From contig NC_090326.1 in assembly GCF_035084215.1 (NCBI RefSeq), positions 137,020,001 through 137,084,000 on the forward strand: a stretch of 64,000 bases of DNA, given 5' to 3'. A model generated the notes under the pieces. It did no database searches. It saw nothing but the letters and a program-made list of their open reading frames with translations, and was not told the DNA's origin. The stretch is from Heptranchias perlo. Its lineage: Eukaryota. Every line of letters begins with the position of its first letter. Within the stretch, counting starts at the first letter, position 1. Positions 8,182 through 60,709 of this stretch are shown here, in pieces. Position numbers and translations under genes: made by a program.

Positions 8182-8408
8182 CAATTGTAAACAATTTTAC
8201 AACACCAAGTTATAGTCCAGCAATTTTATTTTAAATTCACAAGCTTTCGGAGGCTTCCTCCTTCGTCAGGTGAAACGATCGTTCACCTGACGAAGGAGGA
8301 AGCCTCCGAAAGCTTGTGAATTTAAAATAAAATTGCTGGACTATAACTTGGTGTTGTAAAATTGTTTACAATTGTCAACCCCAGTCCATCACCGGCATCT
8401 CCACATCA
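8182..8408. mobile_element. PLE terminal-repeat hairpin insertion with a hammerhead motif in each arm
   Basis: Inverted arms 8182-8274 and 8282-8374, unpaired 34-nt tail 8375-8408, duplication ATCATACATATTGCA at 8169-8183 and 8405-8419. Confidence 0.9.
8282..8320 (+). ncRNA. Minimal type I hammerhead ribozyme motif (mirror copy on minus strand at 8236-8274)
   Basis: TTCAC-CTGACGA-A-GGAGG(AAG)CCTCC-GAAA-GC-TT-GTGAA: stem I, CUGAnGA core, stem II, GAAA and palindromic AAGCTT in place of stem III. Confidence 0.8.
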
Positions 8409-10054
8409 TACATATTGCAGCCACAGAGTAGCCACAGGAGGTAGATATTGAGTCCAGTGCTAGGGGCACTGATCAAATGGATTGCTCTGCTCTGGATGGT
8501 GCCGAGTTTCCAGCATCGTGACTGCAGCCATCCAGGTGAGTGGTGAGTATTTCATTACACCCCTGGCTTGTGCCTTGTTGTAGATGGCGGAGAGGATTTG
8601 ATGAGTCAGAAAGTGAATCACTTTCAGAGAGTACCCAACCTCTGCCCCACTCCTGTGGCCATGGTGTTGGCTGATGAACCCCGCTCCTCCCCCCATAAAG
8701 ATTCTAGTGGAGCAGGATTCAGTCATGGTGGTACTGTTAAAAGTTTGGGGAGTGGGGTAGGGTAGTTGGGCTTTATTTTTCTTGTTGGAGTGGTCATTGC
8801 CTGGCACATACATGGCACAAACATTACCGGTCACTTGTCAGTTTGGATGTTGTTCAGGTTCTGCTGTAGATGGGCACGGGCTGCTTCATTATCCAAGGAT
8901 TTGTAAATGGAGTTGAAATACTGGAATCATCAGCAAACATGCCCATTCCTGACCTTATGACAGAGGGACGGTCATTGATGAATCACTGAACATGGATGGG
9001 CCTAAGATGCTGCCCTGAGGAATTCCTGCAGCCATGTCCTGGGGCTGTGATAATTGGCCTCTGACAACCACAATCATCCCCGTGCGTCAGGTATGACTTC
9101 AGCTACTGGTAGGTTTCCCCATGACCCCCATTGATCTCAGTTTTGTTCAGTTTCCTTGGTGCCATAATTGCTCAAATGCTGCCTTGATGCCAAAGATGGC
9201 TACTCTCACTTCTCCTCAGGCATTCAGTCTTGTATCCATGCTTGGATCAAGGCTGTAATGGGCTTTGGAGCTGAATGGTTCTGGTGGAACAAAAGCTGAG
9301 CATCAGTGAGCAGTTTATTGGTGAGTAGGTAGCAGTGATCACTCCTCTGATAACTGGGAATATTCTGTAAACGGCTGGGTTAAATTTGCCACGCTTTTTG
9401 TGACTAAGACATACCTGGGCAGCATCTTTGGCCCATCCATGTTCAGTGATTCATCAATGACCGTCCCTCTGTCATAAGGTCAGGAATGGGCATGTTTGCT
9501 GATGATTTTCCAAGTTGTCGGGTAAATGTCAGTGTCACAGCTGCATTGCAACAGTTTGGCTAGCGGGTGGCTAGTTCTGGTGTACAGATGTTTAGCATGA
9601 TAGGCAGAATGTTGTCAGAGCCCACAGCCTTTGCTGTGTCAAATGCATTCAGCGCTTCTTAATGTCCCATGGAGTAAACCGAATTGACTAGCCACTGGCT
9701 TCTATGATATCATATGGGGACCTCAGAAGGATGCTGAGTAGGATCGTCCACTTGGCACTTTTGGCTGAAGACGCATGCAATCATTTCAGTCTCATCTCTC
9801 GCACTAATGCTCTGCCACGGTGCATATTACAGCTGCTTTGGCTTCTACATATTCTAAAACTAGTAACGGCACTGGAACTTGTGCTATATGTGTTGGCCCT
9901 TGAGTGGAAAGAAATACTAGGCAGTTATTATGACGAATCCAGCTATATGGATGAGATAATCACTTGTAGCAAGATCATAATGCAGAAGGAGCTTTTTAGA
10001 AAGTCTTAGGAGGTGCTCTTTCTTCATCAAGTGAATCACAGATGGGAAGATTAA

Positions 10055-11874
10055 GGTACGGTAGCATAGTAGTTATGTTACAAGACTAATATTCCAGAGA
10101 ATGCAAGTTAAAATTCTACTCCAGTTTGAGAATTTGTTTTTTTTATAAATCTGGAAATAAAAAGCTGGTAAATATGACCATGAAGCTGGCGGATTGTCAT
10201 AAAAACCAAAATGATTCACTAATGTGATTTAGGGAAGGAAACTGGTCGTCCTTATCTGGTCTGACTCCAGTCCTACGCCAAAGTGGTTGACTTTGAACTG
10301 CCCTCTGAAGAGGCCTAGGCCATTCAGTTGTATCAAACCGCTACAAAGAATAAGACTGGACGGCCTGAACAACGCAGCTGCCAGACTGGGCATGCGGCAG
10401 GTTATGTAAGAACCAACAGGAGGGAATATCCTACTTGACCTTGCCCCCCCTCTCACCAATCTACCTGTCACAGATTCATCTGTCCTTGACAGCATTGATC
10501 GGAGTGATCACCACACAGTTTTTGTGGAGACCAAGATCCGTCTTCACACTGAGGACACCCTCTATTATGTTGCGTGGCAATACTACCGTGCTATAAATTA
10601 AAAACACATCTTGCAGTTTAAAACTGGGCATTCATAAGGCCATCAGCAGCAGAAAAATTGTATACCACCACAATCTGTAACCTCATGGCCTGGCATATCC
10701 CTCACTGTCTCACCACCACCAAGCCAAATGACCAATCCTGGTTCAATGAGGAGTGTGGAATGAGAGCAGCACAAAGCTGAAAATGAGGTGCCAACTTGAT
10801 GAAGCGACAGCACAGGATACATGCATGCTAAACAGTGAAAACAGCATGCTATAGAAATAGCTAAGTGATCCCACAACCAACTGTTCAGGTCAAAGATCTG
10901 TAGCCCTGACACATCCAGTCGTGAATGGTGGTGGACAATTAAGCAACTAGTGGGAGGAGGAGGCCCCATGAACATTCCCATCCTCAATGATGGTGGAACC
11001 CAGCACGTGAGTGCAAAAGACAAGCTAATGTTTTTGCGGCCATCTTCAGCCAGAAGTACCGAGTAAATGATCCTTCTCAGCCTCTTCCTGAGGTCCTTAC
11101 CATCACAGATGCCAATTCAGCCAATTTGATTCACTCTACGTGATAACAAGAAACAGTTGAGTGCATTGGACACAGCAAAGTCTACAGTTCTCAACAACAT
11201 CCAGACTGTAGTGAAGACCTGTGCTCCAGAAGTGGCTAAGTTTTTCGGACAACACTGGCCTCTACCTGATAATGTGGAAAGTTGCACACATATGTCTTGT
11301 CCACAAAAAGGAGCACAATTCCAACCCGGCCAATTACTGCCCTATCAGCCTACTCTCAATCATCAGCAAAGTGATGGAAGGAGTTGTCAACAACACTATC
11401 AAGCAGCACTTACTCACCAATAACCTGTTCACCGATGCTCAGTTTAGGTTCCGCTAGGACGACTCGGCTCCAGACCTCATTACATGCTTGGTCCAAACAT
11501 GGATGCAAAACTTAAATTGCAGAGATGAGGTGAGAGTGACTGCCCTCAACAGGATAAACTAGGGCAACTTGCCATGCCTTCTTTGGCAACATCTGCCAAA
11601 ACCCACAACCTCCACAGCCAGGGCAGCAGGTGCGTGGAAACACCATCACCTCCAAGTTCCCCTCCAAGTCACAAACCACCCTGACTTGGACATATATTCC
11701 TTCATCGTCACTGGGTCAAAATCCTGGAATTCCCTACCTAACATCATTGTGGGAGTACCGTCAAACAAACAAACTGCAGCGGTTCAATAAGGCGGCTCAC
11801 CACAACCTTCTCAAGGACAACTAGGGATGGCAATAAATAGCAGCCTTGCCAGCGATGCCCACATCCCAAGAAAA
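10055..11874 (+). mobile_element. Internally deleted copy of the SINE-headed CR1-group LINE
   Basis: Same 5' start (GGTACGGTAGCA..GTTATGTTA) and 3' end (GGGATGGCAATAAAT..CCAGCGATGCCCACATCCC) as 19966-23236, with RT fragments NPANYCPISLLSIISKVMEG. Confidence 0.85.
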
Positions 11875-58933: not shown

Positions 58934-59070
58934 TTATCTCATTGCTGTCTGTGGGACCTTGCTGTGTGCAAGTTGGCTGCCACATTTCCTACATTATAAC
59001 AGTGACTACCCTTGAAAAGTACTTCATTGGTTGTTAAACGGTTTGGGAAGTCGTAAAAAGTGCTATATCT
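58934..59070 (+). mobile_element. 3' part of the split SINE
   Basis: TTATCTCATTGCTGTCTGTGGGACCTTGCTGTGTGCAA..AAGTACTTCATTGG. Confidence 0.85.
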
Positions 59071-60580
59071 TTACACTTTAATAATTTTTTACGCAGTAAA
59101 GCATAAAAGGTCTGGTGGTGTTATTATGAACCCTTTCGAAAACAAAGAGGATCAAATGAAAGCATAGCTGAAATAAAGTTTGTTTCCTGGGAATGCTACC
59201 AATTTATCTACCTAACTGGACAAGTGAAAACACTCTGTCTGGAACATGAGGGCTGAAGTTAACAAGAGTAATCCAAACACTAAAGCAAAAATATGTATAG
59301 TGAAAAAAGTAAAGAAACCCCATAACTATAACAATTGTTTGGAACCGTTAAATTCCAATGGAAAGCATCAGGTTCTTGCTTCAAAGCATTGGTTATAGAT
59401 CGCTTCAAATTGTAGTGGCTTAAATCATTTTTAGCATGTTATATCTAATTTTTAAAAAATGTAATCTTCTTTGAAAGTCCCTCAGCAAAATGGTACTGAA
59501 CAATTCTTTCTCTAGTATGGATAATTTTGAAGTATCAAAATGTTTTCAATATCTCTGAAGAGGTGCAGACATCTTGGCTTTGATGGGTGACCTTCCACAC
59601 TTTTCACCTTGGAAACAACGAGTCTTCAAAGGGCTTCATAAATTAGGCTCTTTTTTGCTTTTGTATTCTGTCAGGCCTGGGGGCCACAGCAATAACCTGA
59701 ACCACATTCTAAATATCACTGAGGCTGATTGCACAGGAAAAGGGTATCGAAAACCAGGAAAAACCTATTGGCTGACACATCTACTAGATCAACAATATCT
59801 TTATCCACAACTGACTGACTGGGCAGCTTTGTGAGCTAAAAATGCAGCTACTCCCTAGCTTCTCTTGCACACCTTATTTCAAACAGTACAGCAACACTGG
59901 CAGAGGACTGGAAGATGGATTTCCAGGCTGTCTTCTCAAGATAATAGCATGGGGAGATTCCACAAAGAGCAAAAGAAACATCACTTTTTGGGTCAGATAG
60001 CTTCAGACCAGCATCAGAGATTTGATAACATAGTCTATTAAAAATATTAGAAAAATAAAGCACTTCATAAACTCCAATAACCATAGTGGAACAATTTTAG
60101 ACTAAAGTTTTGTAACATCATGTTGGCCATCAAAAATAAAAAGGCTTAATAAGTGGTAAAAAGTTTGAAAAATACAAGTAAAAAATGAAGAAAAACAAAA
60201 TAAAGGTATGAAACACAAAATGAAAAGGTTGCAAGAACAATAAAATAAGTAAATTATTACAATTAAAATGTAAAAAGGCTGCACCAGTGTGAGTACATCA
60301 TAAGGCCAGCTAGTGTAGGTGTCATTTGAGTTATTTTTACATAAGTTTGTTGGTACTATAAATCCAGAGTCAGGGTCCAACCTGGATCCAGAGAGTGAGG
60401 TGGAGTGGGACAACCTTCTCAAGGAAGTCTCATTCCGGGTTTACTCTGGAATCTGACTCCAGATTTGTTGTTACTGCAGTGTTTCTGTAGAAATGTTGCT
60501 ACAATATTCTGTGCAAGATTTAAAAAATAATTTTTTAAAAAACCACAGCTCCTCAGTACAGGCCTGCATTCTTCCATTAC

Positions 60581-60709
60581 TGTAAGGAATCTTACAACAC
60601 CAGGTTATAGTCCAACAGTTTTATTCAAATAAAACTGTTGGACTATAACCTGGTGTTGTAAGATTCCTTACATTTGTACACCCCAATCCATCACCGGCAT
60701 CTCCACATC
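60581..60709. mobile_element. Minimal PLE hairpin lacking the hammerhead region
   Basis: Arms 60581-60625 and 60628-60672, tail 60673-60709, TSD TTCTTCCATTAC at 60569-60580 and 60710-60721. Confidence 0.9.

Follow-up and report, generated by a model that had tools for sequence, protein, structure and literature searches.

The question raised by this locus is how an insertion of a Penelope-like element (PLE) comes to consist of two head-to-head copies of the element's 3' terminus, only one of which carries a short tail. The locus is a 64,000-nucleotide stretch of Heptranchias perlo DNA (NCBI RefSeq assembly GCF_035084215.1, contig NC_090326.1, positions 137,020,001 to 137,084,000 of the forward strand), hereafter the window, to which our coordinates and counts refer. 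A sequence-only reading of the window had listed five related insertions, which we call E1 to E5; two further copies, E6 and E7, represent a second terminus family. The five insertions are real, and they are 3' ends of a Neptune-type PLE. Their architecture is already known (PMC8557442, PMC3846280, PMC4209133, PMC11167929): PLEs are described with an inverted 5'-truncated copy, a tail of 30-40 bp at one end and a hammerhead ribozyme motif in the pseudo-long terminal repeat (pLTR), and the same source calls the formation of their tandem and inverted structures unresolved (PMC8557442). The PLE identity, inverted arms, single tail, target site duplication (TSD) and hammerhead recognized in the sequence-only reading are all correct and were published before it. 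We consider it quite probable that the inversion arose at insertion, and not as an artefact or in a replicating hairpin, and we lean toward a full model in which double priming is followed by run-off at the 5' end of the RNA (based on six fold-backs).

A 27-nt tail motif occurs five times in the 64 kb, once in each listed element, and not at all in 100 shuffles, and all 10 blastn matches obtained with the right arm of E2 as the query lie within E1 to E5, confirming the five related insertions and their positions. There are no head-to-tail repeats of the terminus unit among these 10 matches, and the tail motif had no match in bacterial and archaeal genomes. By blastn, each of the five first-family copies has the fold-back layout, and exactly one tail is present in all four copies with both ends intact. 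No direct pLTR-open reading frame (ORF)-pLTR tandem copy is found in the window, where every copy is 5'-truncated. Exact direct repeats flank E1 (15 bp), E2, E3 and E5 (12 bp each), in agreement with the four duplications of 12-15 bp originally reported; a shared word of at least 12 nt was found for only 2 of 5000 random position pairs. Likewise, the four hammerhead cores originally reported are those of E1 to E4, with none in E5. Our hammerhead descriptor caught seven of the eight arms of E1 to E4, and the core that it missed, in the tail-less arm of E4, is visible in the inverted-repeat alignment. The one-sided extension of 34-38 nt that had been ascribed to all five copies is borne out, as a tail of 33-38 nt, in E1, E2, E3 and E5, but not in E4, where the asymmetry between arms is 82 nt.

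At least three sequence variants are represented, A (E2), B (E1 and E3) and C (E4), with 7-16 differences per 41-88 aligned nt. Private variants are common to both arms of a copy: there are 0/91 differences within E1 and 0/91 within E3, compared with 2/91 between E1 and E3. The short copies have 0-1 substitutions between their arms, and the long copy E2 has 63/1750 plus six gaps.

E2 is the copy that retains coding sequence. Its tail-less arm (16072..17998, minus strand) holds a 5'-truncated remnant of a reverse transcriptase (RT), linker and GIY-YIG endonuclease (EN) with two stops and one frameshift, followed by the 3' untranslated region/pLTR and a hammerhead. Its tail arm (18004..19791, plus strand) holds a 5'-truncated RT-EN remnant with a stop at 18463, frameshifts and an 18-nt deletion, followed by the pLTR, hammerhead, hairpin and tail. 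The 12-bp TSD lies at 16060..16071 on the left and 19792-19803 on the right (plus strand). By blastn the arms align from 16069-17854 to 18001-19753 with 94.8% identity counting gaps, and arm divergence in this 3.7-kb copy is 3.6%, with independent indels and a symmetric CpG decay (9 left, 11 right). The tail-less arm extends about 147 nt farther 5' than the tail arm, and the junction contains a 6-nt snap-back-like match. At the E2 target, the flank forms a short, imperfect tandem duplication (19792-19880).

The closest homologs of the RT-endonuclease remnant, among the best 120 of 1036, are shark proteins (Heptranchias perlo 94%, Scyliorhinus 85%, Mustelus 81%), followed by turtle homologs at about 45% identity, and the H. 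perlo homolog cluster has 54 members. The homologs found include no named reference PLE protein. The motifs YIDD, PGRPI and VVY..C..C..YIG followed by two His identify a PLE-type RT with a CCHH GIY-YIG endonuclease. The Pfam RVT_1 match to the remnant (E=1e-6) falls slightly below the cut-off, PF01541 is present in some homologs, and a PDB sequence search with the closest homolog gave 0 matches. The linker contains a C-x4-C-xx-C motif (CHGNLCKTC at residue 378 of P0001). A CX2-5CxxC linker together with a CCHH endonuclease is described as a feature of Neptune and Nematis but not of Poseidon (PMC8557442); the absence of a linker zinc finger that marks Penelope/Poseidon is not seen here, where the motif is present. 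Neptune is the more probable of the two remaining assignments on the basis of the vertebrate host, Neptune and Poseidon being the listed vertebrate groups.

Positions along the terminus are counted from hammerhead C3 as 0. In the tail arm of E2, a motif match predicts a core promoter at 19631..19666 (plus strand), with a TATA box at 19631 and an initiator-like motif whose A+1 is at 19662. These lie at -39 and -8, 31 nt apart, in both E2 arms, and an initiator at such spacing accompanies only 3 of the 42 TATA matches in the window. The two motifs predict a transcription start at -8, for variant A only. A minimal type-I hammerhead follows (19666..19702, plus strand), with a stem I of 4-6 bp, an extra base after A9, G10.1-C11.1 and a palindromic helix III, traits that define the minimal type-I hammerheads of PLEs (PMC4209133). 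It spans -4 to +32, with a predicted cut after +28. An Rfam scan returned no hammerhead family match at E<=1 and only sub-threshold microRNA (miRNA) hairpin matches. We rejected an miRNA precursor as an identity: the match of E5 to mir-2513 reaches 57 bits, short of the gathering score of 89 bits, and is of a generic hairpin kind.

Downstream of the hammerhead lies a 6-bp RNA hairpin (19737..19752, plus strand; ends at +82/+83), whose 3' foot is the endpoint of the tail-less arms (+82 to +87), and then the one-sided tail (19754..19791, plus strand), which ends at +119/+120. The hairpin has one compensatory pair, G-C in four rows and A-U in three. Folding z-scores of four whole termini range from -0.06 to -2.63, weak or mixed, and across 7 related rows just 2 of 23 pairs show a two-sided change; folding and covariation thus give modest support for an RNA structure. 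Translations of the terminus had no convincing match among 248 proteins, and no frame starts with an ATG anywhere from the hammerhead to the end of the tail. There is a weak hint that the ORF start codon might mark the end of the tail: the tail end of E3 reads ATG-GCT-TC into the TSD (24490-24510), and the near-full-length relative P0127 starts MAS. Against this, MAS begins only 1 of the 13 N-termini compared, and E4 and E5 read on differently past the tail. In variant B, the 7-11 nt directly 5' of the hammerhead equal the tail end (24684-24696 compared with 24504-24514), and variant A has a looser version of this repeat.

The short fold-backs consist of little more than this terminus facing itself. 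E1 (8182..8407, plus strand, variant B) has an antisense tail-less arm (8182-8274) and a tail arm (8282-8407), with a hammerhead in both, and the match between 8182-8274 and 8282-8374 is 100% identical. Its 15-bp TSD (8169..8183 on the left, 8405-8419 on the right, plus strand) overlaps both element ends by 2-5 nt, and 221 bp lie between the TSDs. The flanks of E1 are collinear with two paralogous copies of a long interspersed nuclear element (LINE; 22868-23077 and 50711-51149), each of which holds the target once, and these copies therefore serve as empty sites. The arms join at -9 with a 2-nt self-complementary overlap. E3 (24502..24784, minus strand, variant B) has a tail arm at 24502-24637 and a tail-less arm at 24684-24784, with 99% identity between 24537-24637 and 24684-24784; its 12-bp TSD (24490-24501/24783-24794) overlaps the tail-less end by 2 nt. 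Both arms stop at about -13 despite the 46 nt of filler between them (24638..24683, plus strand). The filler is a copy of the upstream flank that was entered via a 4-nt microhomology, followed by a slipped partial second copy. Its donor (24329..24365, plus strand), 161 nt upstream of the TSD start, matches 24634-24670 exactly over 37 nt, including the 4-nt overlap with the arm. The filler shows that the E3 centre was made at its own locus, at insertion or at a later stage, both being compatible with it; without filler E3 measures 235 bp.

E4 (25340..25504, minus strand, variant C) has a shortened right end and no TSD. Its tail arm ends at -2 and its tail-less arm at -4, joined with a 1-nt overlap; the arms match at 25422-25462/25464-25504 with 98% identity, and the tail-less arm halts at about +38. 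E5 (60581..60709, plus strand), the shortest, has no hammerhead. Its arms (60581-60625/60628-60672, 100% identical) begin at +34 on the tail side and +38 on the tail-less side and join with a 2-nt overlap, within a 12-bp TSD (60569-60580/60710-60721). The centres of E1, E3, E4 and E5 are all different, even between E1 and E3, which are of one variant. Identical centres had been proposed as the sign of a replicating short element, and in the window 4/4 differ.

A search for close inverted repeats revealed an older fold-back, E6 (42937 to about 43154, plus strand, right end approximate), whose terminus family the sequence-only reading had missed. Its arms are 83% alike, its hammerhead lies at 43024, its centre is at -4/+6, and its one-sided extension is about 40 nt; a possible decayed TSD matches at 8/11 positions. 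The family also includes E7 (12529..12908, plus strand), a non-inverted tail-less copy with a terminus match at 12810-12904, which is flanked by a 13-bp direct repeat (12516-12528/12909-12921). Neither copy of this family is joined to coding sequence in the window. Its assignment to PLEs is probable on the strength of the hammerhead and the layout, and of known shark repeats of this kind. A polypyrimidine-AG stretch stands directly before the hammerhead of E7. Inverted integration, which had been called the default outcome, describes all five first-family copies but only one of the two in the second family.

The centres of E1, E3, E4 and E6, that is, three of the four first-family short copies plus E6, lie between -17 and +6, and in the long copy E2 the TATA box and initiator stand just where these centres cluster. 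All five short copies lack the TATA box. Under memoryless truncation, the probability that at least four of six centres fall in this interval is 0.009, 0.004, 2e-4 and 3e-6 for mean cDNA lengths of 50, 100, 300 and 1000 nt, respectively, with corresponding bounds of 0.25, 0.05, 0.003 and 8e-5 for any window.

In the mechanism that we favor, each element would stem from a single insertion event carried out by the RT/GIY-YIG protein of a Neptune-type PLE. The endonuclease would nick both strands 12-15 nt apart, as the TSDs suggest, and both target 3' ends would then prime reverse transcription inside the RNA, as has been seen in vitro for the Poseidon protein PAc and as we presume here. The start sites would be the tail end (+120) and the hairpin foot about 35 nt upstream (+83 to +87). 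Two antisense cDNAs growing from both strands would give head-to-head arms, 3' ends outward, with one tail. An RNA initiated at the pLTR promoter would probably leave only about 95 and about 130 nt 5' of the two start sites, and with so little template both cDNAs would run off its 5' end, yielding the promoterless hairpin of 220-235 bp represented by E1, E3, E4 and E6. The observed sizes are 221 bp for E1 and 235 bp for E3 without filler. For E2, a read-through RNA from a tandem copy would allow the cDNAs to enter the ORF and stop at unrelated points. Host end-joining, the likely activity at this step, would fuse the cDNA ends by overlaps of 1-2 nt, snap-back bases or flank-templated filler, in a manner that we infer to resemble polymerase-theta-type end-joining. 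The short copies would be dead-end by-products.

Several observations agree with this mechanism. The zone in which the centres cluster coincides with the predicted transcription start. The single tail in all four intact copies suggests one primer per start site, a pattern that would arise at random in 1/16 and is weak evidence when taken alone. The private variants shared by the arms are consistent with one template. Which of the two arms reaches farther at the centre differs among copies: it is the tail-less arm in E2 (147 nt) and E4 and the tail arm in E5 and E6, with E1 and E3 about equal, as expected for two independent cDNAs. We give slightly less than even credence to a narrower proposition, namely that double priming is coordinated at two fixed sites and that a strong-stop palindrome of 220-235 bp, centred on the transcription start, is the commonest product. 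A circular RNA template is not favored; with it the entire tail would sit at the inner end of the tail-less arm. For variant A, which has no AG before the hammerhead, we rejected a 3' splice site as the cause of the clustered centres; in the second family it may apply.

Other points weigh against the double priming and run-off model. The sample contains only six fold-backs, and the interval of -17 to +6 was picked after the fact, with any-window bounds of 0.25 and 0.05 at mean lengths of 50-100 nt. The transcription start is a motif prediction for variant A only; for variants B and C and the second-family fold-back, the sequence upstream of the terminus is not in the window. The E5 centre (+34/+38) does not fit run-off at the start site and sits 5-9 nt inside the predicted ribozyme cut, where the part of the PAc study that presents RNA-seq reports no reads at the corresponding cut (PMC11167929). 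In the PAc in vitro assay no strand difference in start site was seen (PMC11167929), and the one-tail rule is therefore not explained by that assay. Arm identity could alternatively result from gene conversion, no TSD was found in a search at the ends of E4, and E7 is not inverted. The tail-end repeat 5' of the E3 hammerhead may leave room for a tandem-derived master of variant B, and symmetric ends, microhomology and the locally templated E3 filler are signatures of repair as well as of insertion.

The main alternative way of making a palindrome at insertion is single priming, in which a cDNA started at the tail folds back, copies itself to about 35 nt short of its start and joins the second nick. 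It accounts for the identical arms and fits E5 and E6, whose tail arms reach farther at the centre; R2 insertions are a documented case of snap-back following full-length cDNA synthesis (PMC11371274), and self-priming was proposed earlier for PLE palindromes (PMC3846280). However, the tail-less arm exceeds the tail arm by 147 nt in E2 and by 2 nt in E4, and a copy cannot outrun its template without a later deletion, so that both count against it. There is also no room for a loop in the E1 and E4 centres, and the tail-less end corresponds to an RT start site used by PAc in vitro (PMC11167929). We consider single priming with snap-back or self-priming unlikely. Long palindromes are unstable, and the short copies might instead be what remained when long inserted palindromes lost their middles through cruciform cleavage and repair. 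This centre collapse, which the sequence-only reading had offered as one origin of the short forms, is compatible with the repair-like ends and local filler, and the 146-nt spacer of E2 would stabilize that long survivor. It is nevertheless unneeded, and it does not predict centres at the predicted start or at the 5' border of the hammerhead in two unrelated terminus families. The arms of the short copies differ by 0-1 substitutions compared with 63/1750 in E2, indicating that the short copies are not older, which also counts against it; intermediate sizes are absent among the six copies, and the 3.7-kb copy kept its arms long enough to reach 3.6% divergence. We judge collapse rather improbable.

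The other origin offered in the sequence-only reading was a non-autonomous ribozyme hairpin replicating via the PLE protein; in a related version, variants B and C would derive from a short retrozyme-like master. Variants B and C do occur in the window only as short forms, 7 (possibly 11) nt 5' of the E3 hammerhead repeat the tail end as in a tandem unit, and PLE-derived retrozymes exist in vertebrates (bioRxiv 10.64898/2026.07.22.740005). Yet four short copies have four different centres, that of E3 derives from its own flank, a TATA box is present in 0/5 short copies, no head-to-tail unit repeats occur in the window, and retrozymes are direct tandems, not fold-backs. The hairpin class does not survive these observations as a likely explanation, and we hold a replicating master to be very doubtful. 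An assembly or read fold-back artefact is hardly credible: palindromes are error-prone in assemblies (PMC8557442), but here the flanks are not mirrored, the TSDs are direct, indels have accumulated independently in the E2 arms alongside symmetric CpG decay, and the flanks of E1 align collinearly with two paralogous LINE copies that contain the target once.

The insertions can be compared with several known systems. They share with the Neptune and Nematis EN+ PLEs (Craig et al. 2021, PMC8557442) the RT, the CX2-5CxxC linker, the CCHH GIY-YIG domain, the tail and the inverted copy, but consist here of only two head-to-head arms, with no direct tandem in the window, and their targets are AT-rich unique sites rather than microsatellites. 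PAc, from Poseidon of Anolis carolinensis (Frangieh et al. 2024, PMC11167929), is a predicted dimer that cuts and extends each of the two strands and initiates reverse transcription within the RNA at two points, one on either side of the tail. It resembles the present elements in its AT-rich target and in two arm ends that bracket the tail about 85-120 nt past the hammerhead; by manual count on the printed sequence, the PAc tail occupies about nt 85-119 of the ORF, or about +90 to +124 from C3. By eye, the PAc sequence preceding the hammerhead has a TATA-like motif followed, about 31 nt on, by an initiator-like motif. Unlike here, PAc has no zinc-finger linker and its ORF starts at hammerhead stem II. 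The sections of that study available to us explain the tail and do not treat inverted arms or short fold-backs. In Penelope of the rotifer Adineta vaga (Arkhipova et al. 2013, PMC3846280), inverted pLTRs, a TSD of 8-10 bp and an optional 31-bp tail are reported, with palindromes at the inverted junction and a TATA box and initiator in the pLTR, as here. Those palindromes are ascribed to self-priming on an antisense template, and stand-alone fold-backs of 130-280 bp with TSDs are not described in the portion of the report available. Metazoan PLE hammerheads share the short stem I and palindromic helix III (Cervera and de la Pena 2014, PMC4209133), and the available text of that 2014 paper mentions opposite-strand hammerhead pairs 100-700 bp apart without an analysis of junctions or TSDs.

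Animal non-LTR retrozymes are likewise short, non-coding and pLTR-derived, with a type-I hammerhead, but they are head-to-tail tandems, whereas the fold-backs here are single head-to-head insertions with unique centres (bioRxiv 10.64898/2026.07.22.740005). R2 uses the second target strand as a primer and is joined by microhomology or locally templated DNA, as here, and its snap-back junctions to cDNA or to nearby target DNA have been reported (PMC11371274). The arms described here overlap as a palindrome, with the second primer at a fixed site 35 nt away; L1 twin priming likewise draws on the second target strand and on joining by microhomology or locally templated DNA, but there the second primer lands at variable sites and non-overlapping inverted pieces result. 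A suspected link to Eulor/UCON hairpin repeats was dropped, the consulted part of PMC5753468 offering no support beyond the classing of UCON13 as Penelope. We did not find the run-off/two-primer explanation among the titles and abstract openings of the PLE papers that our searches listed; it may already have been published in Arkhipova 2006, Evgen'ev and Arkhipova 2005 or Repbase/Dfam, which were outside that scope.

If run-off is correct, it would explain the dependence of PLE mobility on more-than-unit copies and the large number of opposite-strand hammerhead pairs in genomes. On the narrower proposition given above, ORF-bearing progeny could come only from read-through tandem transcripts, and the many small hammerhead hairpins in the genomes of sharks and other vertebrates would record, as fossils, where PLE RNAs began and how the host joined the ends. 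Such hairpins can pass for miniature inverted-repeat transposable elements or miRNA precursors, which calls for caution in annotation.

The remainder of the window contains other repeats. One LINE family is present in fragments at 20843-23235, 50560-51382, 10364-11872, 7981-9811 and 38076-38379; its RT matches Pfam RVT_1 with E=2e-35 at 21453-23171, and two of the copies, inverted to each other, are 94% alike over 826 bp. An old LINE fragment about 72% like its paralogs contains a 91-bp inverted duplication (8925-9015 and 9417-9507, 98.9% identical) that resembles a recent insertion, templated locally, at the junction of a deletion. Three copies of a GC-rich repeat family (27646-29616, 46170-47229 and 56180-58028) are 74-85% alike, with no Pfam match for the three ORFs tested. 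The remnant of an ORF at 1660-2250 matches the DDE_Tnp_4 endonuclease (E=2.5e-7) and belongs to a DNA transposon fragment, and 47397-49146 holds a decayed ORF2 from a different LINE, whose translation looks CR1-like by eye.

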